A stretch of DNA of 64,000 nt from an uncultured Nitrospiraceae bacterium (lineage in GTDB: Bacteria; Nitrospirota; Nitrospiria; Nitrospirales; Nitrospiraceae). The position numbers were made by a program, and so were the translations under genes. Under the pieces are notes generated by a model. The model did no database searches and was not told the origin of the DNA. It worked only from the letters and a program-made list of their open reading frames with translations. The DNA lies in contig CAWJWJ010000002.1 in NCBI GenBank assembly GCA_963846575.1, positions 1 to 64,000 on the forward strand, in the 5' to 3' direction. Below, piece by piece: positions 12,364-30,993 of the stretch; within the stretch, counting starts at the first letter, position 1, and each line of letters begins with the position of its first letter.

Positions 12364-15300
12364 GCCGCGGTCTCCTTCGCGATCTCGCTTCGAAAAAGTG
12401 CGCAGGCAGCGAGGTACTCGGATTCCAGGTGAGCAAGAATGCGATCGGCCTCAATTAGTGTCTTGCGGCTGCCCATACCTTCTAATTCCTGACAGCGCGC
12501 AGCTACTGCGATAGCTCCGAGTTGGGCACTGCTCGATTTAAGCCGGTGTGCGATGGCCTGAACCGCTGCTGGGTTGTTCGCACGAATGGCGTCGCGGAGA
12601 GCATCCAGACTCCCCCTGGAGTAATCAAGATACTTTCGCAACACGGCGGCCAATACACTGGGCCGGTTGGGGCGTTGTAATGCTCGGATATCGGCCAGGG
12701 CCTTGAGATTGACGGCGGAGGGAACGGGGGTGGCCTCCACGGGCGGTTCGGTCGACAGGTCGGCCGCGTGGAGTCTAGAGGACATGTCAGGGGAGGATGC
12801 GTCAGATACTGTCGCACGGTCGCCCGAAAGCCCTCTGGGCAACCATTTCACCACTACATCCCGCAATTGCATCTGGGAATAGGGTTTGGTCAGGTAATCA
12901 TCCATGCCGGCCGCGAGGCATTGATCCCGGTCTCCTTGCATGGCATGCGCCGTCAACGCGATAATGGGCAACCGGCGTCGACCCGAGGATACTTCCTGTT
13001 GGCGGATTTTTTCGGTTGCCGTCAGGCCATCCATGCCAGGCATCTGGCAGTCCATCAAAATCAGATCGATATAATTTCCGCCGGCGGCCAACAAAGCCTG
13101 CTGCCCATTTTCTGCGAGCTCGACTTCATACCCGAGTAATTCCAGCATGCCAACTGCAACTTCTCGATTGACGGGACTGTCCTCAGCCAGGAGAATCCGT
13201 CTGCCGCCCGCCTGGGTCGTGCTGCCACGCGAGATGGATGTTGCGGTACACGTCGGTTCTCCAGCGGTCTGTCCCGAGGGCGGTAAGGGGGGATCCAGTC
13301 GTGGGCCGGGTGCGAAGTCGAGGGGGATGGTGTTTACGAAAGCCTGGCGGTCGAGCCAAGCCGTAAAGGAGAAGGTCGAGCCGCGCCCGGGAATACTGTC
13401 CACGGTAATGGTTCCACCCATGAGGGTGACTAATTGTTTGACAATCGAGAGTCCCAGACCGGTGCCGCCGTATCGTCGGGTCGTTGAGCCATCGGCTTGT
13501 GAAAATGCATCGAAAATGCGTGCTTTGGCCGCTGGGGGGATACCGATGCCACTGTCGGTCACGGCAATTCTAAGGAGCACCCGGCTTGCCGCGCTTTGCA
13601 CTAAATCGGTGGTCAACGAGACTGTGCCGGTATCGGTAAATTTAATCGCATTGCTCAAAAGATTCATGAGAATCTGCCGGAGGCGCACCGGGTCACCCTT
13701 GAGATAGTGAGGCACTCCTTCGCCGGTGTGTTGAATCAGTTGAAGTGGCTTGCGTCGCGCCGCCTCGACGAATAGCTCAAGCGATTCCGACAGCACCTGC
13801 GATAGATCAAAACAGACAGATTCCAATTCCAGTTTGCCTGCTTCGATCTTCGAAAAGTCGAGAATGTCGTTGATGATCGCGAGAAGGGTTCGGCCAGACC
13901 GGTGCACGGTCGAAGCGAGATGCCTCTGCTTATCCGTGAGTTCGCTGTTTAACAATATTTCTGTCGTACCCAGCACGCCATTCATCGGAGTGCGAATTTC
14001 ATGGCTCATATTGGCCAGAAATTCGCTCTTGGCTTTGCTGGCGGCTTCGGCCGCCTCTTTTGCCGCCCGAAGTTCTTGCTCGGTGTGTTTGCGGTCGGTG
14101 GTATCGATGTGGATGCCGACCATACGGGACGCGACGCCGGACGAACTGCGAAGGACAGTACCTCGTGACAAAATCCACCGATAGGATCCGTCCCGATGTC
14201 GAAGGCGGTGCTCACACTCAAACTGTTGCTGCCCGCCGTGAAGGCAAGCCTCAAGGGATTCGAGTGTTCGTTGTCGATCATCCTCATGAATTCGGGAGCG
14301 CCAGCTATCCAATTCATTGGCAAGGGTGGTCTCGTCAAACCCGAGATGATGTTTCCACTGCGGGGAGAGATAGACGGAGTTCGAGATAAGATTCCAGTCC
14401 CAGATCCCGATGTGTGAGCCTTGCACCGTCATGGCCAACCGCTCTTCGCTTGTACGAAGGGCCTCTTCGGCCCGTTTCCGTTCCGTAATATCCACGACGA
14501 AGGCCGTGAAGGTGTAGGAATTCTCGATGTGTAGGGGGGTAACGGCCAACTCGATGGGGAACTCAGTACCATCGCGTCTTAAGGCGGTAATTTCAATCCG
14601 TTTATTCAGAATTGGGCCGTGGCCGGATTTCAGAAACTCCGCCAGTCCGCGCTGATGATCCCCACGATGGTCGGGAGGCATGATGAGGTCCACCATTCTG
14701 CAGCCGATGGCTTCGTGGCGTTGCCATCCGAATATGTGTTCGGCCTGCGCATTCCAATCTATGATCTCGCCCCTGTCGTCCATCCCGATGACCCCGCTGA
14801 TGGCCGTGTCGATAATCAGCCGGGTACGACCCTCATTCTTGCGCAAGGCACGCTCAGCTTGGAGACGCTCCGCCGCTTCCAGGGCAAGGCAGACCAGTGA
14901 GGCGACGGCGGCGCTGAATTGCTGCTCTTCAAGCATCCAGGAGCGGGGTGCACCGGAATGTTCATGGCACAGTACGCCCACCAGTTTTCCCTTAAAGCGG
15001 ATCGGGACGTCCAGCATGGCACGGATTCCGTTGGGGATCAGGTAGGTGTTCGCGAACTCGGCCGTGCGCGGGTCGGCAGTGGCATCGGCGGCATCAATGA
15101 TGATGTGAGATCCCAGCTCCCGAAAGTAATTGGGGTAGGTGTCCGCATGCATTTCCATGCCGGAGGAATGTGAGTCGCTAGACGACTCATACAGGTCTTT
15201 GCACTGCAGCACGCTGGAATCCCCGTTCAGGAACCAGATACCGGCTCGGCTCACGTTGAGGGTCTTGGCAGCGGTATGAGTAATTTCTTTCAGTGCATGT

Positions 15301-15998
15301 TCGAGCAAGCCACTTTGGAGAATGGTGTTGCGCGTCAGGTCTAGCAAGGCGGCTTGGTGCCGCCTCAGCATCTGTTCGGTCTCGTGGCGGATGGAGTCAG
15401 AGTATTTACGCTCGCTAATGTCTCGAAACACGAGTACGGCGCCCGCCACACGGTTCTCCCGAACGATCGGAGCCAGAACATAGGAGACCGGAAACGCGCG
15501 TCCGCTGTGTGTGGTGAGCAATCCATCATCAGTTCGAAAGGTGTCCCCCTGGGCAGTTTCTTCCAAGAGGATTTGAGTGAAGATGGGCTCCGTGAGGGTG
15601 GTTCCAGAGGACAGAGAAATTAGGGTGGGGAGCGGACGGCCGACCACCTCCGTTTCACTGCAAGCCCAGAGGCGTTGGCCGGCCGGATTGAGTAACAGGA
15701 CGTTCCAATTCTGGTCCACCACACAGAGGCCATCGCCGATGGAACGTATCACCGTGTGGAGTTTGTCCCGCTCTTCGGTCAACCGGCTCTCGGAAGTCCG
15801 GCGCAGTTGCTCGTTCAAGGCCAGCATTTCGGTGGAAGAGAGCGCGATGGAACGTTCCAGGAGTTCATGCCCCTGATCTGATTCGACGTAGCTCTGGCTG
15901 ACCCGCGCGAGAAGTTGCTGCCAACTCTCCGGAGATGGAGGTACGGTGGAGGGCTCCAGTCCCAGGCGTTTGAGTTGTCGTGTGAGCAGGGGATGCAT
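12360..15998 (-). CDS. Cytoplasmic multi-sensor hybrid histidine kinase (PAS-GAF-PAS-PAS-HisKA-HATPase-REC-Hpt)
   Basis: PAS/PAC motifs, GAF (AMLDVPI..GVLCHEH), [35 protein letters not shown]. Confidence 0.95.
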
Positions 15999-16003
15999 AG
16001 GGG

Positions 16004-17155
16004 CTACGTTTCGTTAATGGTTGTCATCGTCATGGTCTGGTTGTGAAGATCGCAGGCCCCGCTCTTAGAGGATGAAATCTCACCATAGGAATAGAATCCG
16101 ATCTGCCGGCTGCCTGGCGGAAGCATCTCCATGGTGGCTTCGGTCTCTTCCTCTGTTCGTTCTCCCAGTACCAACCGGCGCCCGACAGAACTGATGGCGA
16201 TGGAGAGTCTGGAGGTGGCCTGCGCACTGGTTGCGTGGCCATCCGCCGTGAGCATCGCGGCATCGGAGGCGCCCTGGATCAAGCGGTCGAAATTCGCGCG
16301 CATCAGTTGCGCGTACATGCCTTGCGGAATGTCTCCCGCAAAAGTCAGCGATTGAGCGTCTTCGTCCACGGCCAGGATGGTACGGACCAGATTTTTCCCC
16401 TCCGAAAGCGAACCTCTTATCGCGAGCGGGAATAACAAACCCGTCGCGGGCAGGCCGGCCGCTCGTTCCCCGAGATACTCTTTGTACAGGTGCAAGGCCG
16501 GTCGCCCGTCCAATTCATACAGCACATGCCCGTTTGATCTGGTGACCAGGCGTTCCGGGCCGAACTTATCCCAACCGCCTCGGGAGCCGGTTCCAATGCG
16601 CACATAGTCGCCATAGAGGCCAGCGGCGATGACATAGCCACTCTGTGGGGCGCGATCTTTCAGGACCCACGTTCGCTTGAAGTGTGTTCCATCGCCGGCC
16701 AGACCTCCGGTGATGACCACCGGCAAACCGCCGATGGTGTCGTTTAGGCCCTTGACCAGTTCGCTGCCGTTCACATGCAGACCATCCGACAAGACTAGAA
16801 TGGCCCGGAGTGATGGCCGTGCCAACTGGGAACCGATCGCCACTCCGGCAGAGTAGGAATTTTCAGAATCGTGCACGGCAGCTTGTGCCGTATGCACGGC
16901 AGTGTGGTGGAACCGCATGGAGGCAGCCACCAGGGTGTCATCCGAGATTTCACTGCCGTGAATTTCTCCGGCGGTGGAGCATCCGATGACATGACTTTGA
17001 GGGCAGGCGTCGAGGACCCGGCGGATGCGCTCAGGTTCGTCGATGAGACCCGGCGATCCGAACAGCACCAGGAGAGTGTCCGGCGAGTCCAATGCGGCGA
17101 ATGACGACGGTGACCAGTAACCGTCGGCCTTGATACTGGTTGTCGCCAGTTGCAT
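16004..17155 (-). CDS. FIST-N/FIST-C signal transduction protein (NosP-like)
   Basis: GCSTAGEI, SDGL..NGS, GGLAGDG, ELDGRPA, GFYSYGEI, LHNQT motifs. Confidence 0.92.
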   Translation of the reverse strand: MQLATTSIKADGYWSPSSFAALDSPDTLLVLFGSPGLIDEPERIRRVLDACPQSHVIGCSTAGEIHGSEISDDTLVAASMRFHHTAVHTAQAAVHDSENSYSAGVAIGSQLARPSLRAILVLSDGLHVNGSELVKGLNDTIGGLPVVITGGLAGDGTHFKRTWVLKDRAPQSGYVIAAGLYGDYVRIGTGSRGGWDKFGPERLVTRSNGHVLYELDGRPALHLYKEYLGERAAGLPATGLLFPLAIRGSLSEGKNLVRTILAVDEDAQSLTFAGDIPQGMYAQLMRANFDRLIQGASDAAMLTADGHATSAQATSRLSIAISSVGRRLVLGERTEEETEATMEMLPPGSRQIGFYSYGEISSSKSGACDLHNQTMTMTTINET

Positions 17156-17362: not shown

Positions 17363-17390
17363 ATATCGGCAGTAAGAGTAGGAAACTAAA
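17363..17390 (-). promoter_or_regulatory. Sigma-28 (FliA)-type promoter of the FIST-kinase operon
   Basis: Minus strand TTTA-N16-GCCGATAT. Confidence 0.75.
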
Positions 17391-17523
17391 AAGAACTGAT
17401 CGTAATTAGGCACCGTGGTTAACGCTCTAAGGATGTTCACGGTTTCCATTCAGCAGGCGCGGAACATCTGCTAAGTGTCTCCGCCGGCTGGATCCGGCAG
17501 AGCCGGTCAGACCTTGCTCGCAG

Positions 17524-20490
17524 TTACGTGTTCGAGCGCGTCCGCAATTCCAACTCCATCATTTGGCACGCCTTTTGGTGCGTGTGAATGAGTTGTTCGA
17601 GGAGCATATCGGCCGAGTCGAATGCCTCCGAGCGTCCGAGCGTTTCCAATTTCCGGCAATGAGCGGCGGTGGCCAATGCACCTAACTGGGCACTGCTCGA
17701 TTGCAACCGGTGAGCTGCATGGTGAAGCACCACTGGATCGCGACTCCGAACTGCCTGACTGATCTGCCCCACGAGCGCTCGGGAATCTTCCAGGTACTTA
17801 GCCAGCACCGTGGCTAGGATGCCGGGATGTCCCGGCCGCTGGAGCGCAACGATCGCCTTCCAAGCGTATGTATCGACATCAGGCGGGGCCGGCAGTGGCG
17901 GGGGGCAGCCCGGGCCTTGCGATAGCTCGCCAATGGAGGAGCGATGGGGTCGGTCGAGAAAACGCGTGAGGATGCGCTGGAGGTGGTCCTGCGTATAGGG
18001 TTTGGGCAAGTAGTCGTCCATGCCTACGGCTAAACACCGGTCGCGGTCGCCTTCCATGGCATCTGCGGTCAGTGCCACAATGGGCGTTCGTGGTCGGTTG
18101 AGTGTGGTCTGTTCATATCGGCGAATTGCCTCGGTAGCGGCAAAGCCGTCCATTTCCGGCATGTGGCAGTCCATCAAGATCAGGTCATAAGAGGTCAGAA
18201 TGGCCGCGTCGAGCGCGAATCGCCCGTTGCCAACCACGTCGACGTGACAGCCGAATAGTTCCAGCATGCCGGTCGCCACTTCCTGATTGACGGGGTTATC
18301 CTCGGCGAGGAGGACTCTTTTATTGAGCGGTGAAGGATGGTGAGGAGTGACTGCGGGCGAAGACTCTGTTCCGGCCAGCTCTTTGGCGTACTCTCTGCGT
18401 TTGAGCACCATCAAGACTTCGCGAAGGACCGACTGCCGAACAGGTTTGGAGAGCCATCGCCAAATATGAGCTTCTTCGGCGAGCCGTTGGTCATAGTTGA
18501 CCGAACTCAACATGAGGATGCGGAGCGACCGGAGGCATGGGTCTGCGTGGATCGCATGCGCAACTGCTAAGCCATCCATCTCCGGCATATGCATATCGAG
18601 AACGACAAGATCGTAGGGAGCGCGTTCTGTGACGGCTTGTGCGAGTAAAGACAGTCCCCGGGGGCCGGAATCGGCGGATGCATGGGTGGCTCCCCACTGG
18701 GACAACTGCTCTTCGAGGATGAGCCGATTAGTTTCATTGTCGTCAATGATCAGGATGCGGAGTCCGCATAAGTCTTGCACCGGCGAAGGGGAGGAATCCG
18801 GCACGAGGGATTGTTTCTCAAATTGGGCGGTGAACCAAAACGTGGACCCTTGTCCCGGGATGCTCTCGATCCCGATGGTACCCTGCATCAATACGGTCAA
18901 GTGCTTGCAAATGGCGAGGCCCAGGCCGGTGCCGCCGAATCGTCGGGTGGTCGAGCCATCAGCCTGGGAGAATGCTTGGAATAAACGTTGTTGGGTCGCG
19001 AGGGGAATCCCCTCACCGGTATCAGACACGCGGACCTGCAGCGACACGGTCTTGGCTGTTTCAGTCAGCGTGTTAATCAGCACGCTGACATGGCCCTGTG
19101 CGGTGAATTTTATCGCATTGCCGACCAGATTCAGGATGATTTGACGCAGCCGTACGGGGTCGCCGAGGAGATCCGTACGGCAGCTCTGGTGGATGTGATA
19201 AATCAGCTCGAGCCCTTTGCGTTGGGCAGGCTCCGCCATCAACTCCAGGGCTTCTTCGATCGTCTGCCGGAGATCGAACTCAATCAACTCCAACTCCAGC
19301 TTGCCCGCTTCGATTTTAGAGAAATCCAGAATGTCGTTGATAATCTGCAGCAGTGCCGTCCCGGAACGATACACGGTACCGGCCAGGTGCCTCTGTTTCG
19401 GCGTAAGATCCGTAGAGAGCAGCAAATCGGTCATCCCGAGCACACCGTTCATCGGGGTTCGGATTTCGTGGCTCATATTTGCCAGAAATTGAGACTTCGC
19501 CTGGCTGGCGGCCTCGGCGACCTCTTTGGCACGGTAGAGCATCGCTTCTTGTTTTTTTCGTTCCGAGATGTCCCGGATAAATATGGAGAGATGTGGAACT
19601 CCACCCAAAATGATGCAACTCATGGCCAATTCCACAGGAAACGCGTTGCCCCTGCGGGTGTTAGCGACCATTTCCATGCGGCGATTCGGGACGGCCCAGG
19701 GGATGGAGGTTGGGTGCGGGGTTACCGGATCCGCTGAAGACGTGTTGGTCAAGGTGGGAAGGTAGGTGCTCACCAAAGTCCCGATGGCCTCGGCTCGGGC
19801 GACTTCGAACATTCTTTCCGCCTGAGCATTCCACTCTGTAATGATTCCTCCCGCATCGGTCGTGACAACGGCGTCGAGGGCTGTCTCGATGACCATGCCC
19901 ATGCGTGTCCGGGTTTCACTTTCGATTGCCGCTGTTTGCGCGATCTCACTGACTCGCCAGAAGTAGGTGAGGGCGACGCATTCAGCCAGGATGAAGGTGC
20001 CATGGATCAGCGCCCAGTTCCACGGATGCGCTTGGCCGGAATCGTGGTTGTACACCATGGTCGGCATGAGCGTACCCATCAAGCCATGGTCGGCTATGAT
20101 GAACAGGATGCCGAACAGAAATGGGCCCCAGTCCTGGTACAACACAACAACGGCGATCATCACGAAAAAATGAAAATGCAGTTCGATGTACCCTCCGGAC
20201 AGGTGCACCAGCATCGCAGATGCGGTCATCAGGCCGAAGGTGGCAACGACGGACTGGGTTCGGCAGTGGATGATCGATAGACGAGCCGTAAGGGCAAGCG
20301 AGGCCAGGATGAGGCCCGCTCCGCCGCAGACGATGAGATCCGAGCCCATATAGGCCCCGAATAACGGAACCCCGAGGACATGGGACCACAGTACAAAGAG
20401 AATGCCCCGGTGGCGTGCGTTCCAGTCAGAGGTGCTGAGGGAACCGCCCCTGGGAAGGCATGACAGGATATATGACGAGCGAGTCGTCAT
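17524..20490 (-). CDS. Membrane hybrid histidine kinase (multi-TM sensor-PAS-HisKA-HATPase-REC-REC-Hpt)
   Basis: About 6 hydrophobic segments with IELHFHFFV..YQDW; H-box; LDMHMP and MDCHMP receivers; [13 protein letters not shown]. Confidence 0.95.
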   Translation of the reverse strand: MTTRSSYILSCLPRGGSLSTSDWNARHRGILFVLWSHVLGVPLFGAYMGSDLIVCGGAGLILASLALTARLSIIHCRTQSVVATFGLMTASAMLVHLSGGYIELHFHFFVMIAVVVLYQDWGPFLFGILFIIADHGLMGTLMPTMVYNHDSGQAHPWNWALIHGTFILAECVALTYFWRVSEIAQTAAIESETRTRMGMVIETALDAVVTTDAGGIITEWNAQAERMFEVARAEAIGTLVSTYLPTLTNTSSADPVTPHPTSIPWAVPNRRMEMVANTRRGNAFPVELAMSCIILGGVPHLSIFIRDISERKKQEAMLYRAKEVAEAASQAKSQFLANMSHEIRTPMNGVLGMTDLLLSTDLTPKQRHLAGTVYRSGTALLQIINDILDFSKIEAGKLELELIEFDLRQTIEEALELMAEPAQRKGLELIYHIHQSCRTDLLGDPVRLRQIILNLVGNAIKFTAQGHVSVLINTLTETAKTVSLQVRVSDTGEGIPLATQQRLFQAFSQADGSTTRRFGGTGLGLAICKHLTVLMQGTIGIESIPGQGSTFWFTAQFEKQSLVPDSSPSPVQDLCGLRILIIDDNETNRLILEEQLSQWGATHASADSGPRGLSLLAQAVTERAPYDLVVLDMHMPEMDGLAVAHAIHADPCLRSLRILMLSSVNYDQRLAEEAHIWRWLSKPVRQSVLREVLMVLKRREYAKELAGTESSPAVTPHHPSPLNKRVLLAEDNPVNQEVATGMLELFGCHVDVVGNGRFALDAAILTSYDLILMDCHMPEMDGFAATEAIRRYEQTTLNRPRTPIVALTADAMEGDRDRCLAVGMDDYLPKPYTQDHLQRILTRFLDRPHRSSIGELSQGPGCPPPLPAPPDVDTYAWKAIVALQRPGHPGILATVLAKYLEDSRALVGQISQAVRSRDPVVLHHAAHRLQSSSAQLGALATAAHCRKLETLGRSEAFDSADMLLEQLIHTHQKACQMMELELRTRSNT

Positions 20491-20554
20491 GACGACTAAC
20501 CTTTGTGATGGCCTGTTGGAGCTTCGCCGAACGTGACGTAGCCTCGGCCTACCT

Positions 20555-20582
20555 GTATCGGCAGAAAGGTCGTGCAGCTAAA
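20555..20582 (-). promoter_or_regulatory. Sigma-28 (FliA)-type promoter of the second hybrid kinase
   Basis: Minus strand TTTA-N16-GCCGATAC, about 65 nt upstream of the ATG. Confidence 0.75.
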
Positions 20583-20686
20583 TAGGCACGGAGGATGATG
20601 TCGTTGAACATCAGTTGCGGAGGGCACCCACAGGGATGGCCGGGTTGTCAGGCCTTGCTCGGGACAGGCAGGATATTTAAATTTCG

Positions 20687-21385
20687 CTAGTGGTGGTGAT
20701 GCTGACACTCCGGACTATGCACATGTGACGGCTCCGGGGGCGGGGGTGTCAGTTGTCCGGGGAGCAGGATTCGTCCGACTTCGTGTTGCTTGCTCAAGTG
20801 TTCAGCGATTTCGGGGTGGAATGTTTTGACGTAACCGATCATGCCGTTCAGGAAGCGGCGCGATTGGAAGTCCTGGCCTGAAAACTCCGAAATAAGTGCT
20901 ACGGCTCGGTCCAGAAGTTCCGGGGCTGACCCCAGGTCAGCGATTTGTTGAGGGTTTTGCTTGGCGAATGTATCGTATTCTTTTTTCAGCCGTTCTGCGA
21001 AGACCGGCATTGGGGCAGCCGGTATATGGAGAGGGCTCAAGGTGCGGCGTAGGGCCTGAATGGCTGCAATGACCTCGGCATCCTGGCCGTCCCGGCGATC
21101 GTGGAAGTAGCCGAACGTGACGACTTCGATCAGGTTGAACAGGGCGGCGGCCTTTTCACCTCCTGCAACGCTCAGCTGTCTGTATAATTCCCGGCGGACG
21201 GGGGCGAACTGGTCGCCGAGTCGCTTCTGCTGATAGTCGCTGCCGGTTTCGAGGTAGGCACAGTCAGGAGGACAGGAAATTCTTGTCAGACGATGTTCTC
21301 CGCAACATTGACTGCAGATCAGCCCGTTGAGTGCCGGACAGGAGCGTTTCCCTTTGCGCCGGCCACAATACACGCACTGGCTCAT
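20687..21385 (-). CDS. Hypothetical protein with Cys-rich N-terminus and His-rich tail
   Basis: CVYC..CPAL..ICSQCC..CPPDC; ends HVHSPECQHHHH; start overlaps the upstream stop. Confidence 0.85.
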   Translation of the reverse strand: MSQCVYCGRRKGKRSCPALNGLICSQCCGEHRLTRISCPPDCAYLETGSDYQQKRLGDQFAPVRRELYRQLSVAGGEKAAALFNLIEVVTFGYFHDRRDGQDAEVIAAIQALRRTLSPLHIPAAPMPVFAERLKKEYDTFAKQNPQQIADLGSAPELLDRAVALISEFSGQDFQSRRFLNGMIGYVKTFHPEIAEHLSKQHEVGRILLPGQLTPPPPEPSHVHSPECQHHHH

Positions 21386-22374
21386 TTGGCGGGTGATCCT
21401 TTCTTGTCGGATTGCAGCGGTTCCACGAATCCATAGTCCGCGAGGGTGCGTTTTGCTCGATCAGCCGAGGATGAGGCCACAGGAGACTCGAGTCCATTGA
21501 CCTCGGCGGCATTCGAGTCCTGATAGGGGACGAGAATTAAGTGGTTTGCGCGGTCAATGCCCAGATCCGTGGGAGAGGGGAGGTATTCCGCGATCACCTG
21601 AAACTTCTTGTTGGGACCCATCCGCCAGATCTTGCCTTTCGTCGCATCCGCCACATACATGCTGCCCCAGCGATCAAAATCCACTCCGCTCAGATTTTGA
21701 AAGCGGGCGGTAAAAAACCCGTTCGAGACGAGTTCCGTGAGGGCCCCTTCGGGAGTAATCTCAAAGATTTTCCCTGAATCGTAACTCACTACGACGATAT
21801 GTCCGGTTCTGGGATGAACCGCGACGCCTGATGGTCCGGCCAAATGTTTGCCGGACACATAGGTCGTGAGGGTTTGTGAGGGTGTGAGGTCGAGCCGATA
21901 CACCGTATTGCCGAGCTGGTCCGCAAGATACAGGTGACCGTGACCATCAGCGGCCACATCTACGAGGGACTGTGCCGATCCGGCATCGGCTGGACGCGGG
22001 AGCACGATCGTGGAGAGAGGCTTGCCCGTTGTCTTGTCGAAGGCACGCAGGCTGTCGAGATCTGTGACGTACAAGACCTGGTCGACGACCGCCATCCCTT
22101 TGGGTGCATGAAGCGTCACACCGCCGCGGCCACCTTCAATGAACTTGAAGGCCGTAATGCGTCCGTCGTCGCTGAGTTTAGTGATGAATCCATTGTTGTC
22201 GCGGGCTTCGGTCTCTCCGTTGATGTTGGAGATAAAGTAGGAATTCGTCGTGGGGTCAGCGAGGAAGCTATGCGGAGATTCCAACCCGCTGACCTGAAGG
22301 GCCAGGGCGAATGAGCAGTGAAGGACCCATGCTATCGCCGTTCCCAGCGTCAGTTCGACGGTGCGACGGCCCAT
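21382..22374 (-). CDS. Exported SMP-30/gluconolactonase/NHL-like beta-propeller protein
   Basis: Signal peptide then GLESPHS, YFISNING, DNNGFI, LHAPKGM, GPSGVA blades; start taken at ATG 22374. Confidence 0.85.
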   Translation of the reverse strand: MGRRTVELTLGTAIAWVLHCSFALALQVSGLESPHSFLADPTTNSYFISNINGETEARDNNGFITKLSDDGRITAFKFIEGGRGGVTLHAPKGMAVVDQVLYVTDLDSLRAFDKTTGKPLSTIVLPRPADAGSAQSLVDVAADGHGHLYLADQLGNTVYRLDLTPSQTLTTYVSGKHLAGPSGVAVHPRTGHIVVVSYDSGKIFEITPEGALTELVSNGFFTARFQNLSGVDFDRWGSMYVADATKGKIWRMGPNKKFQVIAEYLPSPTDLGIDRANHLILVPYQDSNAAEVNGLESPVASSSADRAKRTLADYGFVEPLQSDKKGSPAK

Positions 22375-22660
22375 GGACCGTCTTGAGACCCTGTGAGGAA
22401 TGGTATCGGAAATCATGCCAGAAGGTGTCGCACAGAGGATTGTGTATCTGTATCGTAGCCAAGGGTCTCGGACACTGTCAAGGAAGCGACGACACCAGGC
22501 ATAGAAAAGGGCTTCCGCCTGGTGCAGCGAGGATGGATCCTTTCGTTCGAGCTCCTCATCAGGTGTCGGGCTCGGGAGCTCCTCGATCGTTGACTTGTTG
22601 AAAAATGGCCTGCTATGGTGCCCTGAATTTTTCGCATAATCTCTGCTCAGGGAGGACATT

Positions 22661-23521
22661 GTGGCTGCACGAATCATCGATGGAAGAGCATTGGCCCAGC
22701 AGGTCCGCGACGGGCTCGCTAAGGAGTCCGCGGCGGTGTTGGCCAAAACGGGCATGAAGCCAGGCTTGGCCACCATCTTGGTGGGAGATGACCCTGCCTC
22801 GCATCTCTATGTCAAAAGCAAACAGAAGGCGTGCGATGCGGCCGGAATATACATCGACGATTCCAAGTTGCCTGCCAACACGACTCAGGCTGATCTGCTC
22901 ACGCTCATCTCCCAGAAAAATGCCGATCCAAAGATACACGGTATCCTCGTGCAACTTCCGCTTCCCAAGCATATCGACAGCAAGGTCGTCCTCGATGCCG
23001 TGTCCGCTCAGAAGGATGCCGACGGATTCCACCCATACAATTTCGGTCGCCTGGTGGAGGGCAGCCCGATTTTTGAGGCCTGCACGCCCAAGGGGGTCAT
23101 CAAGATGATCGAATCCACCGGCCTTTCGATCGAGGGCAAACGAGCCGTGGTGCTGGGACGCAGCAACATTGTCGGGAAACCGCTGGCGCTGATGTTACTT
23201 CACCGCCATGCGACTGTGACCATTTGCCACTCGAAGACGAAAGATCTTCCGGCCGTCTGTCGTGAGGCCGAGTTGTTACTGGTGGCGATCGGGAAAGCTA
23301 GATTCGTCACCGCCGATATGGTGCGCGAAGGGGCGGTCGTGATTGATGTCGGAACGAATCGCCTGCCGGACGGGAAGGTAGTCGGTGACGTCGACTTTGA
23401 CTCGGTCAGTCAGAAAGCAGGTTGGATCAGCCCGGTTCCTGGCGGCGTGGGTCCAATGACGATCGCAATGTTGCTCGACAATACGGTGGAATCTGCTAAG
23501 AGAATGGCAGGAATGAAGTGA
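22661..23521 (+). CDS. folD: Methylene-THF dehydrogenase/cyclohydrolase
   Basis: GILVQLPLP, KDADGFHP, CTPKG, GRSNIVGKP, PVPGGVGPMT. Confidence 0.97.
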   Translation: MAARIIDGRALAQQVRDGLAKESAAVLAKTGMKPGLATILVGDDPASHLYVKSKQKACDAAGIYIDDSKLPANTTQADLLTLISQKNADPKIHGILVQLPLPKHIDSKVVLDAVSAQKDADGFHPYNFGRLVEGSPIFEACTPKGVIKMIESTGLSIEGKRAVVLGRSNIVGKPLALMLLHRHATVTICHSKTKDLPAVCREAELLLVAIGKARFVTADMVREGAVVIDVGTNRLPDGKVVGDVDFDSVSQKAGWISPVPGGVGPMTIAMLLDNTVESAKRMAGMK

Positions 23522-23588
23522 GCGCAGGCAGTCTACCGGGACAGAGGGGGGGAGAGTTGGAACGATTTGTCACGGATGGGAGCGACGC

Positions 23589-24479
23589 ATGAGCGCGGAG
23601 CCGCGACGGCTCAAGGACGTGTTGGCCCAGGGGCAATTTGCCGTCACGGTGGAATATAACCCGCCAAAGGGGACGAACCTGAGCCACGTGGTGGAGAGCG
23701 CCAAGACTTTGGTTGGCCGTGTGCATGGCGTCAACGTCACTGACAACACAGCGGCGATCGTCCGGGCGGGCTCGTTGCCGGTCTGTCGGGTGTTGTATGA
23801 GCTGGGACACGATCCGGTGATGCAGCTCACCTGTAGGGATCGCAATCGTATCGCCATGCAGTCCGATCTCATGGGCGCGCACATGTTGGGTCTCCGAAAC
23901 ATTCTCTGTTTGACCGGGGATTATCCGACGGTCGGTGACCATAAAGAAGCCAAGCCAGTCTATGATCTGGATTCTGTTCAGGTCATGCAGTTGGTGCAAG
24001 GCCTGAATCAAGGGAAGGACTATGCGGGCAATAAGCTGGATGGAGCCACCGCCTTCATGATCGGCGGTGCCGTGACTCCAGAGGCCGACCCATTGGGTCC
24101 CATGTTGGTCAAGTTCGAAGTGAAGGTGCGGGCAGGGGTGGACTTCTTCCAGACCCAAGCCATCTATCAGCCGGAACAATTCAAGACCTTCATGCAGGCC
24201 GTGCGTCCCTTTAAGGTGAAGGTGCTCGCTGGAATCCTGCTGTTGCGGAGCGCCAAGATGGCAGAATTCATGAACGCCAATATCCCCGGCGTATGCGTCC
24301 CGCAGGACATGATCGACGAAATGCGTGCCGCGGGCGACAAACGGGCTCTCGATGTCGGTGTGGAGATTGCCGTGCGAACGATCAAGGCCGTGCGCCCCTA
24401 CTGCGATGGCGTGCATATTATGGCGATCAAGGCGACCGAACGGCTCCCGGAAATCCTGACGAAAGCGGAACTCGGGTGA
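23589..24479 (+). CDS. metF: Methylene-THF reductase (MetVF-type catalytic subunit)
   Basis: VEYNPPKG, NVTDN, QLTCRDRNRIAMQSDL, LTGD, FFQTQ, GVHIM. Confidence 0.92.
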   Translation: MSAEPRRLKDVLAQGQFAVTVEYNPPKGTNLSHVVESAKTLVGRVHGVNVTDNTAAIVRAGSLPVCRVLYELGHDPVMQLTCRDRNRIAMQSDLMGAHMLGLRNILCLTGDYPTVGDHKEAKPVYDLDSVQVMQLVQGLNQGKDYAGNKLDGATAFMIGGAVTPEADPLGPMLVKFEVKVRAGVDFFQTQAIYQPEQFKTFMQAVRPFKVKVLAGILLLRSAKMAEFMNANIPGVCVPQDMIDEMRAAGDKRALDVGVEIAVRTIKAVRPYCDGVHIMAIKATERLPEILTKAELG

Positions 24480-25267
24480 TGACCGTCCCGGACTTGCAGA
24501 AGTGCAAGCGTGAAACACGGAAGATCGCTGTGGTCACGGCGTACGACGCGCTGTTCACGCGAATCATTGAACAAGCGGGGATCGACGTCATTCTCGTCGG
24601 AGATTCGTTAGGCGTGGTGGTGCAGGGCAAGGCCAATACGTTATCGGTCACGATGGAGGAGATGCTGTATCACACCAGGCTGGTGGCCGGCGCGGCCCGG
24701 CGCGCCCTGGTCATCGGAGACATGCCCTTCATGTCCTACCAGGCCGGTACGGATGACGCCTTGCGCAACGCAGGGCGGTTTCTCCAGGCGGGGGCGACTG
24801 CCGTGAAATTGGAGGGAGGCGCGGCGATGACGGATCGGGTGGAGGCCATGACGAGGATCGGCATTCCCGTCGTGGGCCATCTCGGAATGACCCCGCAATC
24901 CGTTCAGCAGTATGGCGGGTTCAAGGTGCAGGGAAAGGGAATGGACCAGGCTCAACAGCTCCTGAGCGACGCCAAAGCGCTGCAGGAATCCGGCGCGGTC
25001 GCCATTGTGCTTGAGGCCATTCCAGCCGAGTTGGCGAGATCCATGACGGAGGCGGTAGAGATCCCAACCATTGGCATCGGTGCCGGACCCTATTGCGATG
25101 GTCAAGTACTGGTATTGTACGACCTGTTAGGCCTTTTTGATGAGTTCTCACCGAAGTTTGTGAGACCCTATGCCCATCTTAAGGCCAATGCCGAGGATGC
25201 CCTTCGCCGTTATAAAGACGATGTCGAACAGGGCAAATTCCCTTCCGACGCCGAAAGTTATCACTGA
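24479..25267 (+). CDS. panB: 3-methyl-2-oxobutanoate hydroxymethyltransferase
   Basis: TAYD, LVGDSLG, DMPFMSY, VKLEGG, GHLGMTPQS, IGIGAG..DGQVLV. Confidence 0.97.
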   Translation: MTVPDLQKCKRETRKIAVVTAYDALFTRIIEQAGIDVILVGDSLGVVVQGKANTLSVTMEEMLYHTRLVAGAARRALVIGDMPFMSYQAGTDDALRNAGRFLQAGATAVKLEGGAAMTDRVEAMTRIGIPVVGHLGMTPQSVQQYGGFKVQGKGMDQAQQLLSDAKALQESGAVAIVLEAIPAELARSMTEAVEIPTIGIGAGPYCDGQVLVLYDLLGLFDEFSPKFVRPYAHLKANAEDALRRYKDDVEQGKFPSDAESYH

Positions 25268-25371
25268 TCGATGGTTCGAGCCTCTCTGCCCTCCTGATCG
25301 GGTGATGTCCCCGTCTCACTCAACTGGTCTTCTGCTGACGTGTTAGCCTGGCGCCGCTTGTCCGTTCCGGT

Positions 25372-25983
25372 TCAGACAGAGCGGTCGTCTGAGGAGCCGT
25401 CGGCAGGCTCAAGTATTATCCACACATGCGAATCTCGCTGGGCCTCCAGCCACCGCCTGAACCGGTCGGCCAAGGCGAGGGTGTCGACTCCCATGTAATG
25501 GGGGGGGACGGTCTGCAAGCGCGCCAGACCTCGTTGGACAAGCTTCTCGGCCGCATCCTGGCAGCCCATAGCCTGTTTGAGATTCGCGGCAGCCAGTTGA
25601 ATCAGAGCTTGGAAAAAGTTGCCTTCCTGGGTCGCGCGTCCATATCCGTGCCACAATCCCTCCAGGATCTCATGTGCCTCCCACCAGTAGGCGAAATTGT
25701 AGAGGTCGATCGCGAAGAGATAATCCTCCGACCCGGCCCATTCCCCATGCCGGAAGATGCGCGGCGGTGTTTCCGTGAGACCGAAGGAATGACCCTCTGG
25801 ATGGCGACGTGGATGTGGGGTTACGCCGGGAATAAATCGGTAGGGCGGAAAAACACGAGTGCTGTAGCGGGGCTGTACCGCTGGTGCAGGCGGCTCACTG
25901 CCTCCCACGATTGTCCTGACAGGTGACTTGATACACCTTACGATCTTCAAGGCAAACCGCCGTGAGTTGGCGTCCGTATACAC
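25372..25983 (-). CDS. DUF309 domain protein
   Basis: LYN..YWWEAHEILEGLW...ALIQLAAA; true start probably near GTG 25908, since the longer ORF overlaps apaH. Confidence 0.82.
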   Translation of the reverse strand: MYTDANSRRFALKIVRCIKSPVRTIVGGSEPPAPAVQPRYSTRVFPPYRFIPGVTPHPRRHPEGHSFGLTETPPRIFRHGEWAGSEDYLFAIDLYNFAYWWEAHEILEGLWHGYGRATQEGNFFQALIQLAAANLKQAMGCQDAAEKLVQRGLARLQTVPPHYMGVDTLALADRFRRWLEAQRDSHVWIILEPADGSSDDRSV

Positions 25984-26713
25984 AGCCGCTGTCTAGCGCC
26001 AGCAGATTCGGGGTCATATGAAGCCCCATGGCAGCCCAATGCCCTATGATGATGGTGGCCGTCGCATTGCGTCGGGATGGAATATTAAACCAGGGATGAA
26101 ACCCCTCGGGAGTGGATTCCGGCGGACCTGAAAAGGATGATTCCATCAACCCGGAAACCGAGCAGGCTCTCAGTCGGGTGAGCACGTTGATGATGCTTGC
26201 GAAACGAGCGGGGCCGACGAGGTTGGGCGTCCATTGCAAATGTCCACTAGGATGGAGTGCGCGTAACGTGGCGGTGAACTGATCTCCACGAAGTGCAGTT
26301 TCGGCCTCTCGTGCCAATTGATGAGCTTCGTCAACCGTCCACTGAGGCAGCAATCCGGCATGGACCAACACCACATTCCCCTCCCGGTGGAGCAGGGGGC
26401 GCTGCCTGAGCCAGGCGAGCAGTTCATCTCTATCAGGAGCTTTCAAGATCGGCGTGAGTGTATCGCTTTGACGGAGGCTGGCCACACCCTCAGCAACAGC
26501 TAGCAAGAATAGATCATGGTTACCCAGGACGGTAATGGCAGCCGGCCCCAGACTCTTGATGTATCTGAGGACCTGCAGCGATTCCGGCCCCCGATTAACC
26601 AGATCTCCCACGAACCAAAGGCGGTCTTCTGGCGGATTGAAGCGAACCAACTGGGCAAGTTGCTGCAGGGAGGTGTAACAGCCTTGGAGATCACCGATTG
26701 CATAGCTCGCCAT
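25895..26713 (-). CDS. apaH: Symmetrical bis(5'-nucleosyl)-tetraphosphatase
   Basis: YAIGDLQGC, GDLVNRGPES, LGNHD, VHAGLLPQW, GHWAA, LDSGCVYG. Confidence 0.95.
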   Translation of the reverse strand: MASYAIGDLQGCYTSLQQLAQLVRFNPPEDRLWFVGDLVNRGPESLQVLRYIKSLGPAAITVLGNHDLFLLAVAEGVASLRQSDTLTPILKAPDRDELLAWLRQRPLLHREGNVVLVHAGLLPQWTVDEAHQLAREAETALRGDQFTATLRALHPSGHLQWTPNLVGPARFASIINVLTRLRACSVSGLMESSFSGPPESTPEGFHPWFNIPSRRNATATIIIGHWAAMGLHMTPNLLALDSGCVYGRQLTAVCLEDRKVYQVTCQDNRGRQ

Positions 26714-26838
26714 AGATGCACTCAGACTAGCCTGGATGGCCTGGCTTCGCAAGCCGTGAAATGGTGTGCGAGTACCCAGGGCCTATTATGAAAAAGCCGA
26801 CGGGATGCTGTAAACGATGGGTTGAATCAGCCGGGCAG

Positions 26839-29800
26839 TCAGCGTCCTTGGCGAGCCTGCAATTCCCGGTTCATGACAGCACAGGCGGCAGTATGGACTT
26901 GGGTGAGGTCCTGTAATAAATGTTCGGTCTGATCATGCCGGCCGAGGCGTCCTAGGATCTCCAGGTCCTTGCAGCGGGCCGCTGTTGCCAGAGCGCCGAG
27001 CTGTGCACTGCTCGATTTCAGGCGGTGTGCCGCCTGGTAGAGTGTGACCGGATCGTGGCTGTGCACAGCCATCTTAATTTGTTCGACCAACCGGCAGGAA
27101 TCTTCGAGATAGCTGCCAAGGACGCGTGCAAGGATGTCGGGCCGGCCAGGACGTTGCAGGGCCTGAATCGCAGCCCAGGCATTCTTATCGACTCCGTCCG
27201 CAATGGGCTGAGCTGAAGCGAGTGCCGGAGGATTGAGGCAATCGACAGGAGTGTCTTTCCCATGACCTTCAGAAGGTGTGGTGGGTTCTTTCAATGGTAG
27301 CCACCGGGCAAGCAGGGATTTCAGTTGAGATATGCTGAAAGGTTTTGTGAGGTAGTCGTCCATCCCCGCGGCGAAACAGCGGGCACGATCGCCCTCCATT
27401 GCGTTGGCCGTGAGCGCGATGATGGGGACGTGGCGTCGGCCGGTATTCTCTGCCTCCTGACGGCGAATGATTGCCGTAGCAGTAAAGCCATCCATCTCCG
27501 GCATCTGACAATCCATGAGGATCAGGTCGAAGGTGTTCTCTGCTGCCGCTTCGACGGCTTCTCGGCCATCGCCCGCCACCGTCATGCTGCAGCCTAAAAG
27601 GTGGGCCATCCCGAGTGTCACCTCGCGATTCACGGGGTTATCCTCGGTGAGCAGAATGTGTGCCCGTAGAGCAAGAACCTCCTGTCCGGTCTGTAATTCT
27701 GCGGGAGGCATTGCTTGACTTACGCCTGTGTGAATGAGGTTCAGGCATTTCTGGAGCAGGGATCGACGAATCGGTTTTCTTAACCAGGTGTGAAAGCGGC
27801 TGTTGTGAGTCTCCGTTTGCTCTGGCAATCGATCCACCGCAGTAAGGGCGACGAGGGTGGTGCGGCGGAGCGCTGGGTCGCTCGCGATCGCATCCGCCAA
27901 TGCCAATCCATCCATGTCGGGCATGTGAATGTCCAGCAGCGCCGTATCGACGGGGATCCCCTGTTGTACGGACTGTTCCAGCAAGACCAGTGCTGTCGTA
28001 CCGGAATCAGCGACCGTGACCGTAGCCCCCCACCCGCGCAAATACGACTCTAGGATTTGACGAGTGGTGGGATGATCGTCCACGACGAGAACGTGCGTAC
28101 CGGCCAATTCTTGGCTCTCCAGGAGCGCGGTAGAGACTTCCGTTCCTCTTTCCAGGGTGAGGGTAAACCAGAAAGTCGATCCCCGTTCGGAGGAACTGGA
28201 GACGCCCACTTCGCCACCCATCAGGTGGACCAGTTGTTTGACGATCGCCAACCCCAGACCGGTACCTCCGAAGCGGCGGGTGGTACTCCCATCAGCTTGC
28301 GAGAAGGCCTCGAAGAGCCGCTCACGGGCTGATGGGACAACGCCGATTCCGGTATCAGTCACCGTGCATTTCAGTGTAACGGTGCTAGGAGTCTGAGACA
28401 GAGGAGTGACAGCCACGGTGACTTCGCCCTGTGAGGTGAACTTTATAGCATTGCTGACGAGGTTCAGAAGGATTTGACGCAATCGAACGGGATCTCCACG
28501 GGTGGAATCAGGAATCCCCTCAGCGATAAAACACGTCAGTTCCAGATGTTTTCTTGCTGCCGGCTCTGCGAGGAGTTCAATAGCTTCTTCGAAAGCGTAC
28601 CGGAGGCTGAACTCAATTTTCTCTAATTCCAGCTTGCCAGCCTCCACTTTAGAAAAGTCGAGAATGTCGTTAATGATGTCGAGCAATGCCGATCCGGAAC
28701 TACGGACGGTTTGGGCCAGCGACTGCTGCTTGGGGGTGAGGTTTGTGGAAAGCAGCAGCTCTGCCATGCCGAGGACGCCATTCATCGGCGTACGAATCTC
28801 GTGGCTCATGTTTGCCAGAAATTGACTTTTTGCGATAGTCGCGGCCTCCGCCGTTTCTTTGGCATGCCGTAGTTCGTGCTCGGCGAGTTTTCTTTCCGAG
28901 ATATCCCTGATAAATCCGCTGAAGGTCGTGCCCGATGTCAGTCTAAGAGGTGTAATGGCAAGTTCAACGGGAAATTCCGTTCCATCTTGACGCAGCGCGG
29001 CTATCTCCAGCCGCTTTCCAATTGCTTTGCCTTGACCGGTCGCCAGATAGTGCTGCAGCCCCTTTTCATGTGCCTCTCGATAGGCGGTGGGAACGATGGT
29101 TTCCGATAGTTTCTGGCCTAGAATCTCCTGCCGTGTCCATCCAAAAATTTGCTCGGCCTGTGGGTTCCAATCAATGATTCGGCCGTGGTCATCCATCACG
29201 ACGATCGCATCCAACGCATGATCTACTATGGACCTCGTTCGTTCCTCGCTGTCGCGAAGTCCTCGCGTGAGAGGCGCACTGATGTGACGGTTGATGAGCC
29301 ATCCAATAATGAAAATCGTACTGAGCAGCCCCAGTCCCAGCATCCCGAGTAAATAGGTCCGTTCCTGAAGGACTGAGGTGGCTGCTCGTTCGATGTGTCG
29401 ACGCTCCGCATCCGCGAGTGCATCCAGGGCAAGAATTTCCTGACGATGTTGCTCAAAATAACGAGTAAGGGGGCCAGCTACCAAAGTGGTCATAGCTGCT
29501 CTATCGCCTCGTTCTGCGGCCGGCAGAAACTCCTCATTCCATACGTCGTAGAATCGTCGTGCCCACAGACCTGAGGCATTGATCAGTTTGTCGTGGAGCG
29601 GTCCCGGCGGAAGGCGTTTATGCCATTCATTCTCTTTTAAGATGTATTCTTGTTGGAGACGCTGGAATCGTTCGATGAGCACTGGCGATTGGGCAGGAGG
29701 AACTACGAGCAGTTCCAACGTGGCGAGATAGGATTCAACAATGTAGAGAGGAGGAGGAAGCGTATCAACGACGAGATCTTTGCTGGCTACAATTTTGACA

Positions 29801-30000
29801 TACAGCGGGCCATGAATCTGTATGGTGGTGACCGTATCGCGCACCATGAGAGTAAATGCTCCGGTGGCCAGGATCGCGACGCCGATCAGAAGGCCGAGCC
29901 GAAGTTTGATCGATTCGGGCTGCTTCGTAGGAAAGGTCGACTGTGCTGGATTCACACGCTCTCCAGGTAGCACGATCTGGGTAGCCAGGAATATGGCCAT
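26839..30000 (-). CDS. Membrane hybrid histidine kinase (periplasmic helical sensor-PAS-HisKA-HATPase-REC-REC-Hpt)
   Basis: Two TM helices flanking GPLY..IV..KDL..D.LPPP.YI.ESYL; PAS; H-box; two receivers; [13 protein letters not shown]; likely start GTG 29955 after GGAGAG. Confidence 0.95.
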   Translation of the reverse strand: MAIFLATQIVLPGERVNPAQSTFPTKQPESIKLRLGLLIGVAILATGAFTLMVRDTVTTIQIHGPLYVKIVASKDLVVDTLPPPLYIVESYLATLELLVVPPAQSPVLIERFQRLQQEYILKENEWHKRLPPGPLHDKLINASGLWARRFYDVWNEEFLPAAERGDRAAMTTLVAGPLTRYFEQHRQEILALDALADAERRHIERAATSVLQERTYLLGMLGLGLLSTIFIIGWLINRHISAPLTRGLRDSEERTRSIVDHALDAIVVMDDHGRIIDWNPQAEQIFGWTRQEILGQKLSETIVPTAYREAHEKGLQHYLATGQGKAIGKRLEIAALRQDGTEFPVELAITPLRLTSGTTFSGFIRDISERKLAEHELRHAKETAEAATIAKSQFLANMSHEIRTPMNGVLGMAELLLSTNLTPKQQSLAQTVRSSGSALLDIINDILDFSKVEAGKLELEKIEFSLRYAFEEAIELLAEPAARKHLELTCFIAEGIPDSTRGDPVRLRQILLNLVSNAIKFTSQGEVTVAVTPLSQTPSTVTLKCTVTDTGIGVVPSARERLFEAFSQADGSTTRRFGGTGLGLAIVKQLVHLMGGEVGVSSSSERGSTFWFTLTLERGTEVSTALLESQELAGTHVLVVDDHPTTRQILESYLRGWGATVTVADSGTTALVLLEQSVQQGIPVDTALLDIHMPDMDGLALADAIASDPALRRTTLVALTAVDRLPEQTETHNSRFHTWLRKPIRRSLLQKCLNLIHTGVSQAMPPAELQTGQEVLALRAHILLTEDNPVNREVTLGMAHLLGCSMTVAGDGREAVEAAAENTFDLILMDCQMPEMDGFTATAIIRRQEAENTGRRHVPIIALTANAMEGDRARCFAAGMDDYLTKPFSISQLKSLLARWLPLKEPTTPSEGHGKDTPVDCLNPPALASAQPIADGVDKNAWAAIQALQRPGRPDILARVLGSYLEDSCRLVEQIKMAVHSHDPVTLYQAAHRLKSSSAQLGALATAARCKDLEILGRLGRHDQTEHLLQDLTQVHTAACAVMNRELQARQGR

Positions 30001-30005
30001 TTTTC

Positions 30006-30033
30006 TTATCGGACGACCCTGGTTCGGTCTTTA
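30006..30033 (-). promoter_or_regulatory. Sigma-28 (FliA)-type promoter of the third hybrid kinase
   Basis: Minus strand TAAA-N16-TCCGATAA. Confidence 0.7.
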
Positions 30034-30561: not shown

Positions 30562-30993
30562 CTACCTGTAACGTGCTTCAATTTTGCTGGATAGGCCGCC
30601 CCGAGCAGTAAAGTCGCCTGTGACACGGGCCCAGACCGGACGACAGGCATGCACAATGTCCTGGAGGATGCGATTCACGGCATTCTCGTAAAAGATTCCT
30701 AAGTTTCTATAGGCGTGGATATACATTTTCAGTGCTTTAAGCTCAAGGCACCGCTTATCCGGCATGTAATGGAGTGTAATCGAGCCAAAGTCTGGCAAAT
30801 TGGTTTTTGGACAAATTGCAGTATACTCGGGAATCACGATCGTAATTTCATACCCTTTGAATTGATTCGGGAAGGTTTCAATCTCAGGCAGGGGCGTAGC
30901 AATCCCGCTTTTGGCATGCCGTTCGTTATAGCCTAGCCTGGTCGCTGATTCATTCAGCTGGCCCTTCCGTTTCCCGGTAGTCGTCACCCCCAC
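30562..30993 (-). CDS. queF: NADPH-dependent preQ0 reductase (unimodular type)
   Basis: PEYTAICPKTNLPDFG, ELKALKMY, YEN, FTARGG. Confidence 0.94.
   Translation of the reverse strand: MGVTTTGKRKGQLNESATRLGYNERHAKSGIATPLPEIETFPNQFKGYEITIVIPEYTAICPKTNLPDFGSITLHYMPDKRCLELKALKMYIHAYRNLGIFYENAVNRILQDIVHACRPVWARVTGDFTARGGLSSKIEARYR

Follow-up and report, generated by a model that had tools for sequence, protein, structure and literature searches.

Sigma-28-type promoters ahead of FIST and hybrid histidine kinase genes point to a genome-wide late flagellar regulon in a Nitrospiraceae bacterium

The window considered here is a 64,000-nucleotide (nt) stretch of DNA from an uncultured Nitrospiraceae bacterium (assembly GCA_963846575.1, contig CAWJWJ010000002.1, positions 1 to 64,000). 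Its minus strand carries signalling genes for a FIST-domain protein and several histidine kinases, arranged in three predicted transcription units. Each unit is preceded by a short motif resembling the promoters of the flagellar sigma factor FliA (sigma-28). The three sites are very probably FliA promoters; if so, the FIST protein and four histidine kinases belong to a late flagellar regulon with approximately 20 promoters.

Site 1 (TTTAG-N15-GCCGATAT, 17363..17390, minus strand) is a sigma-28-type sequence located 208 nt 5′ of the FIST gene, with a predicted transcription start (+1) at approximately 17355. The first gene after it codes for a 383-amino acid protein with FIST N and FIST C domains (16004..17155, minus strand; Pfam PF08495 and PF10442). 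This is followed by kinase 1 (12360..15998, minus strand), a soluble hybrid kinase of 1212 amino acids with the order PAS-GAF-PAS-PAS-HisKA-HATPase-REC-Hpt. The REC aspartate and Hpt histidine motifs of kinase 1 are present and no membrane segment was predicted in it. A 4-nt overlap joins kinase 1 to the gene of a 415-amino acid REC-HisKA-HATPase protein (11116..12363, minus strand).

Site 2 (TTTAG-N15-GCCGATAC, 20555..20582, minus strand), also sigma-28-type, lies 65 nt 5′ of the ATG of kinase 2, with a predicted +1 at approximately 20547. Kinase 2 (17524..20490, minus strand; 988 amino acids) consists of a six-helix membrane sensor followed by PAS-HisKA-HATPase-REC-REC-Hpt. Its histidine-rich, six-transmembrane input domain (19921..20490, minus strand) also occurs in haloarchaeal chemoreceptors and is Htr8-like. 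In most close relatives the homologue of kinase 2 is approximately 580 amino acids long and lacks REC and Hpt, as judged from the one that was scanned for domains.

Site 3 (TAAAG-N15-TCCGATAA, 30006..30033, minus strand), of the same type, occupies the interval between queF and kinase 3, with a predicted +1 at approximately 29998. The queF gene (30562..30987, minus strand) marks a constant position upstream of the signalling cassette of site 3. Kinase 3 (26839..29955, minus strand) has a two-helix transmembrane periplasmic sensor followed by PAS-HisKA-HATPase-REC-REC-Hpt, and its open reading frame is open from an ATG at 30000. This first in-frame ATG is only 5 nt past the −10 box and on the predicted start site, so the GTG at 29955 is the more likely start of the protein. 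The GTG is preceded by GGAGAG, and homology of kinase 3 with its relatives begins at residues 18-29; the ATG at 30000 is thus unlikely. All three start sites were predicted from the fliC promoter of Pseudomonas aeruginosa, in which the −10 box spans −15 to −8 (PMC12784957).

The initial annotation had described these sites as the minus-strand boxes TTTA-N16-GCCGATAT (17390-17363), TTTA-N16-GCCGATAC (20582-20555) and TAAA-N16-TCCGATAA (30033-30006). All three are present exactly, and each has the G next to the −35 tetramer, an intergenic position and an orientation toward the downstream gene. The pattern T[ACT][ACT]AG-N15-[AGT]CCGATA occurs 22 times in the 4.2 Mb genome, from which 0.34 matches are expected per 64 kb. 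The window holds three, all on the minus strand. At six other spacers, the same pattern gives 5-11 matches genome-wide. No sigma-70-like site was found in the three intergenic regions.

Two scoring matrices were built without the window sites: the first from 13 sites outside the window, and the second only from 26 flgM promoters of relatives. With the 13-site matrix, site 1 reaches a score of 20.0, site 3 19.4 and site 2 12.7. Among 2435 upstream regions, sites 1, 3 and 2 rank 12, 14 and 27 with the 13-site matrix, and 11, 15 and 69 with the flgM matrix of the relatives.

The genome contains one copy of fliA, at C2:1636132 (TIGR02479, 260.5 bits against a cut-off of 189.6), as well as genes for the flagellin FliC and the anti-sigma factor FlgM. 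The FliA reading of the initial annotation depended on such a gene being present. It had also expected the motif, with the same spacer, ahead of fliC, flgM and the che genes, and this is what the genome-wide scan returned. A first regular-expression scan at the same spacing recovered flgM, csrA, fliC, the che operon and a divergent HD-GYP/hybrid-kinase operon of the flagellar cluster. The 28-nt motif of the genome can be written as T(C/A/T)(A/T/C)AG-N15-NCCGATA. The looser TNNAG-N15-NCCGATA has 39 matches at a spacer of 16, of which 23 are intergenic and 18 promoter-like (at most 350 nt from a same-strand gene). Of these 18, five are the flagellar sites from which the pattern was derived, and the window contributes three. 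Each of nine other spacers yields 0-3 promoter-like matches. At a score of at least 14, the 13-site matrix retrieves 22 regions (13 being its training sites), against 0.8 for wrong spacers and 2.8 for shuffles. Controls that were shuffled or had a wrong spacer therefore seldom contain the motif. An antisense control was set aside as inflated, probably through divergent gene pairs that have an intergenic region in common. Genes outside the window came from a simple gene caller (3816 genes), and their start positions are approximate.

The best matches precede the flagellar operons flgM-flgN-flgK-flgL, csrA-fliW and fliC-flaG-fliD-fliS. They also precede two sets of chemotaxis genes: a helix-turn-helix gene with cheR-cheY-cheZ-cheA-cheV-cheB-mcp-cheW, and a second cheY-cheA-cheV. 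Genes linked to cyclic di-GMP (c-di-GMP) and other signalling follow further matches, namely three HD-GYP-type genes, GGDEF, PilZ and HDOD genes; the signature motifs of the HD-GYP and PilZ proteins are present. Other motif-led units encode a 1391-amino acid hybrid kinase, a PAS kinase with REC-HDOD, and DUF420 followed by STAS-STAS-REC/PP2C-Hpt-REC/kinase. Matches before efflux parts, DUF420 and a TPR protein have no obvious link to motility and may be false positives. The claim of one late flagellar regulon thus finds support in its substance, although it is not a local one: the predicted regulon spans the genome. The helix-turn-helix gene (HTH_17, 75 amino acids, C2:1677926-1678153) heads the che operon, 11 nt after one of the strongest sigma-28 sites. 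The two cheA copies (C2:1680205-1682076 and C2:1078912-1080783) are 99.8% identical over 1876 nt, while the adjoining cheV copies are approximately 80% identical; this near-identical pair would reflect either recent conversion or an assembly artefact.

A search with the kinase-2 core retrieved 51 kinases from the genome. Only four of them bear Hpt domains, and all four are motif-led (one of these units belonged to the matrix training set), compared with 3 of the 47 others. The motif-led kinases are not claimed to form a clade; in a tree of 13 kinase cores, one of the ten inner branches was supported.

The relationship between motif and sigma factor was followed through a family sample of 151 genomes, with the pattern counted at spacer 16 and at spacer 18. 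The median counts are 20.5 and 9, respectively, in the 84 genomes with fliA, and 6 and 5 in the 67 genomes in which fliA was not found. Within the genus g2, two fliA genomes carry 22 and 26 motifs, and the other sixteen carry 1-11. An excess of at least 8 occurs in seven genomes without a fliA match. Three of these (G020, G049 and G130) have flgM or flagellin, and so their fliA may be located in assembly gaps. The orthologous FIST gene follows the same trend, as fliA co-occurs with it in 38 of 40 genomes versus 46 of the 111 others; four distant matches, one of them by identity only, were dropped from this count.

The initial annotation had anticipated conservation upstream of orthologues, and the motif is indeed kept at site 2 and on the queF side. 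For site 2, syntenic relatives were defined as those whose counterpart of the 20687-21385 gene still borders the cassette. The motif is retained in 16 of 16 of these, with scores of 18.7-22.9. An alignment of 14 relatives with sites 1 and 2 of the present genome has 12 invariant columns, all within the 28 nt and 10 of them in the boxes. Ten of the 16 have a kinase-2 homologue directly next to FIST and no internal site, and in the remaining six FIST comes directly after the promoter. As site 2 is kept in all 16 and an internal site is seen in none of the 10, these comparisons mark site 2 as the ancestral promoter of a kinase-FIST operon, with site 1 as an additional copy inside it. The regions of sites 1 and 2 have a 15-nt word in common (E 0.008) and each resembles a portion of the promoter of the closest relative, which suggests a duplication. 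The three sites are accordingly not independent acquisitions. A first scan of 600 nt upstream of FIST orthologues found the motif (at least 13) in just 14 of 29 relatives. When wider loci were re-examined, a kinase-2 homologue was seen to lie between promoter and FIST in the cases concerned (G072, G110, G126 and G134 were not extended).

On the queF side, 16 of 17 relatives have a motif scoring at least 14.0 before the first signalling gene, and the remaining one reaches 11.3. The distance from queF to the motif is 39-330 nt in the relatives versus 529 nt here. Where queF runs straight into apaH, the motif is absent (2 of 2 genomes). The cargo behind the queF-side and cassette promoters varies and includes kinases, TonB receptors, binding proteins, cytochrome c and FIST. 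The locus after queF thus appears, from gene order, to be a swap site for sensor cassettes. In the probable history, a single promoter after queF once headed a kinase-FIST cassette, and a second fixed promoter, site 2, now heads the FIST part in the present genus. Cargo genes would come and go behind both promoters. At six loci after queF in relatives (L082, L083, L087, L088, L093 and L094), TonB-dependent receptors, ABC binding proteins and cytochrome c are found with hybrid kinases and have their own sigma-28 motifs. No motif was found at three distant FIST-kinase pairs (49% identity, with another kinase type).

The geometry of the motif is nearly constant. The flgM gene is preceded by it in 27 of 29 genomes, and the spacer of flgM promoters in 29 genomes is 16 in 27 and 15 in one. 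Of the TAAA-N15/16 consensus invoked originally, the boxes and N16 stand, whereas the 15/16 range does not, since the spacer is almost always 16. A 16-nt spacer is also found in Bacillus SigD and Chlamydia sigma-28 promoters, and FliA of Escherichia coli additionally drives the c-di-GMP genes pdeH and ycgR. The FliA promoters described for E. coli (PMC4183435) and P. aeruginosa (PMC12784957) have TAAA-N15, one base less. The E. coli FliA regulon and the P. aeruginosa fliC promoter have, like the sites here, an AAG-type −35 and a CCGATA −10 (PMC4183435, PMC12784957). The distance from the −35 G to the −10 box, however, is 15 nt here and 14 in those two species, and the −35 here is usually TCAAG, TTAAG or TTTAG, unlike theirs. 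The E. coli regulon likewise has fliC, flgM and the che operons as core targets and FlgM as anti-sigma factor (PMC4183435). The regulon predicted here differs from it by including every Hpt-bearing hybrid kinase, csrA-fliW, HDOD proteins and a partner-switch cluster.

Several observations weigh against FliA control of the three units, for which the whole case is built on sequence. Site 2 is a weak match in the present genome and the weakest of the three, as its rank with the flgM-only matrix shows; with that matrix, its score is equalled by 1.7% of shuffled regions. Site 1 is without an orthologous counterpart, and the flanks of site 3 cannot be aligned base for base with those of the relatives. 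Of the 11 closest kinase paralogues, 5 have no motif, and one of these 5 shares the six-helix sensor. Among the 84 fliA genomes, the motif excess is below 3 in seven, and one genome (G139) retains fliA and the FIST gene but has no more than a degenerate site (score 11.3). Another (G019, 81% complete) retains the cassette although fliA, flagellin and an intergenic motif were not found in it; the kinases can therefore exist outside the regulon. As related genomes are non-independent samples, no p-value is attached to these counts. The Legionella FIST-kinase operon lpg0279-0278-0277 is described as RpoS-dependent and not FliA-dependent (10.1101/604611), meaning that FIST-kinase operons are not flagellar by nature.

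Some of these points would fit an alternative in which the sites are real but secondary FliA promoters. Most kinase mRNA would then be read through from the upstream housekeeping genes, and the kinases would be general sensors boosted in motile cells. Same-strand genes do lie upstream of kinase 2 (a gap of 197 nt) and of kinase 3 (queF). There is a sigma-70-like site at 22481-22452, and no minus-strand T-tract terminator was found between it and kinase 2. The drift of site 2 in the present genome and the persistence of the cassette in G019 point the same way. Against this, the motif stays with the cassette where other genera have it next to different genes, it vanishes where the cargo has been lost, and FIST orthologues co-occur with fliA. 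Read-through as the main source is hence a minority possibility, although one that deserves consideration. It is far less probable that another sigma factor, RpoS/RpoH-like or of the extracytoplasmic function type, reads the motif. The genome has eight further sigma-like matches, and the spacer is one base longer than that of E. coli and P. aeruginosa. Yet the motif precedes fliC and flgM with both sigma-28 boxes present, and most family genomes without fliA do not show the excess. A chance origin of the three matches, for which the shortness and degeneracy of the motif, its roughly 5-11 matches per genome at wrong spacers and the unremarkable standing of site 2 alone under a strict matrix might speak, is already contradicted by conservation and spacer specificity, with three matches against the 0.34 expected, all intergenic and correctly oriented, a conserved footprint and four of four Hpt kinases motif-led.

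FliA control of the three units, the favoured reading, may be placed in the order of flagellar assembly. FliA stays bound to FlgM up to the completion of the hook-basal body; once free, it transcribes the filament, chemotaxis and signalling genes as a group. If FlgM retains FliA in this manner here, the kinases would be produced late in assembly, and newly motile cells would also make the FIST and kinase sensors. The proteins of the site-1, site-2 and site-3 cassettes have no output domain. The kinases may instead pass phosphate along a His-Asp-His route to receivers of the same regulon. Candidate partners are a REC-HD-GYP phosphodiesterase encoded at C2:1304860, REC-HDOD and single REC proteins, among them the single REC at C2:1577433, and the REC-PP2C/REC-kinase/STAS partner switch. 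The simplest route would run from the kinase Hpt to the REC-HD-GYP protein, lowering the c-di-GMP read by PilZ proteins. A second could involve the partner-switch cluster with its STAS, REC-PP2C, Hpt and REC-kinase components. The result would be a tuning of c-di-GMP and of swimming versus attachment. We infer this motility role of the kinases from regulon membership only.

The partner-switch cluster (C2:1689741-1693004, L011:13741-17004) has the order STAS-STAS-REC/PP2C-Hpt-REC/kinase and closes the flagellar-chemotaxis region, with a sigma-28 motif upstream. The D-S site is conserved in both STAS proteins. This split, HsbR/HsbA-like switch is widespread in the family: the REC-PP2C gene was detected in 69 of 151 genomes, and the cluster either has a motif of its own or ends a che operon. 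Like the HptB-HsbR-HsbA system of P. aeruginosa, it combines Hpt, receiver-phosphatase, kinase and STAS genes, here within the flagellar cluster (PMC5085249; 10.1101/2021.08.29.457346). HsbR joins phosphatase and kinase in one polypeptide (PMC5085249), whereas two genes, REC-SpoIIE and REC-HATPase_c_2, are found here. There are also two STAS genes, and the window kinases have Hpt domains of their own, unlike in the Pseudomonas system. The Pseudomonas switch frees FliA from FlgM (PMC5085249). A complex prediction for the second STAS protein with FlgM gave a score of 0.00 and a mark of 0.32, which is evidence neither way.

Possible inputs are suggested by the sensor domains. Having FIST N and C domains ahead of a kinase in one predicted operon is the architecture of NosP-NahK (P. 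aeruginosa PA1975-PA1976), and Legionella lpg0279-0277 likewise has FIST ahead of a co-transcribed histidine kinase (10.1101/604611). Unlike in these systems as described, the kinase here has REC and Hpt domains and the operon is without a cyclase. An assignment of the FIST protein as NosP (NF041558) was rejected at 62.1 bits against a cut-off of 450, and no solved structure matched it by sequence. In G019, the gene directly 5′ of FIST (L096:6157-10023) joins an ammonium-transporter domain to GAF and a hybrid kinase.

The model of the kinase-2 input domain is a six-helix membrane domain with a predicted local distance difference test (pLDDT) value of 93.5. Six histidines are invariant in 41 sequences, and the domain is 39-40% identical to chemoreceptors of Halobacterium species. 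It gave no match in Pfam or NCBIfam, only unnamed or MASE-type Atlas clusters, and no Foldseek match at E<=0.001. Among 50 listed fold matches, the membrane domains of adenylyl cyclase and ImcA ranked best (Z 10-11, root-mean-square deviation 3.5-3.9 over 163-175 residues), and no cytochrome oxidase chain was among those 50. Htr8 (HtrVIII, OE3167F) is the six-helix oxygen transducer of Halobacterium salinarum, and the only six-helix one in the transducer table of that species (PMC7289035, PMC13401364). Both it and the kinase-2 sensor have six predicted helices and invariant histidines, a comparison made through the chemoreceptors of Halobacterium species. The domain is fused to a kinase here and to a chemoreceptor domain in Htr8, and heme binding here is putative. 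The six-helix domain occurs in 765 proteins, including kinases, diguanylate cyclases and haloarchaeal chemoreceptors, and has a paralogue in the same genome (C1:376550-377074).

These likenesses offer gas sensing as a lead for the input of the kinases and FIST. In its fullest form, the proposal is that FliA builds a gas-sensing circuit: FIST (possibly for nitric oxide or heme) and Htr8-like (possibly for oxygen) sensors would act through four Hpt kinases on a split HsbR/HsbA-like switch and on FliA-controlled c-di-GMP phosphodiesterases. With FlgM feedback, swimming or settling would follow oxygen and nitric oxide. This complete circuit is speculative and on present evidence improbable.

Nitrospira, which are of key importance in nitrification, are difficult to approach by genetics. 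It is already known that FliA can control signalling genes located elsewhere than in the flagellar cluster; the load of sensor kinases here is unusually large. Searches of the literature on Nitrospira FliA and flagellar promoters, on Leptospirillum sigma-28 and on FliA regulons that include hybrid kinases yielded no account of the present regulon, subscription journals being mostly outside their coverage. The sigma-28 regulon mapped here, with its longer spacer and all Hpt-bearing kinases as cargo, appears to be new for this lineage and, as a sequence-based prediction, well supported. The approximately 20 predicted promoters would assign orphan kinases, HD-GYP, PilZ and HDOD genes and the partner switch to the motile state. 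Regulon membership narrows the likely phosphorelay partners, and the motif predicts a defined start site for each transcript. The near-strict 16-nt spacer provides a clean case for how sigma-28 sets promoter geometry.

The block between kinases 2 and 3 (20687..26713) contains a Cys/His-rich gene, a propeller-like gene, folD, metF, panB, DUF309 and an apaH-like phosphoesterase gene. No sigma-28 motif was found within it, and sigma-70-like sites flank or lie inside this region on the minus strand at 22481-22452 and 26814-26785. Its Cys/His-rich gene (20687-21385, minus strand) codes for an unannotated 232-amino acid protein with cysteine clusters and a histidine-rich tail; it matched no family and is 84-90% identical among close relatives. 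The window also carries ATP-citrate lyase and ferredoxin oxidoreductase genes, and close homologues bear Nitrospira names.

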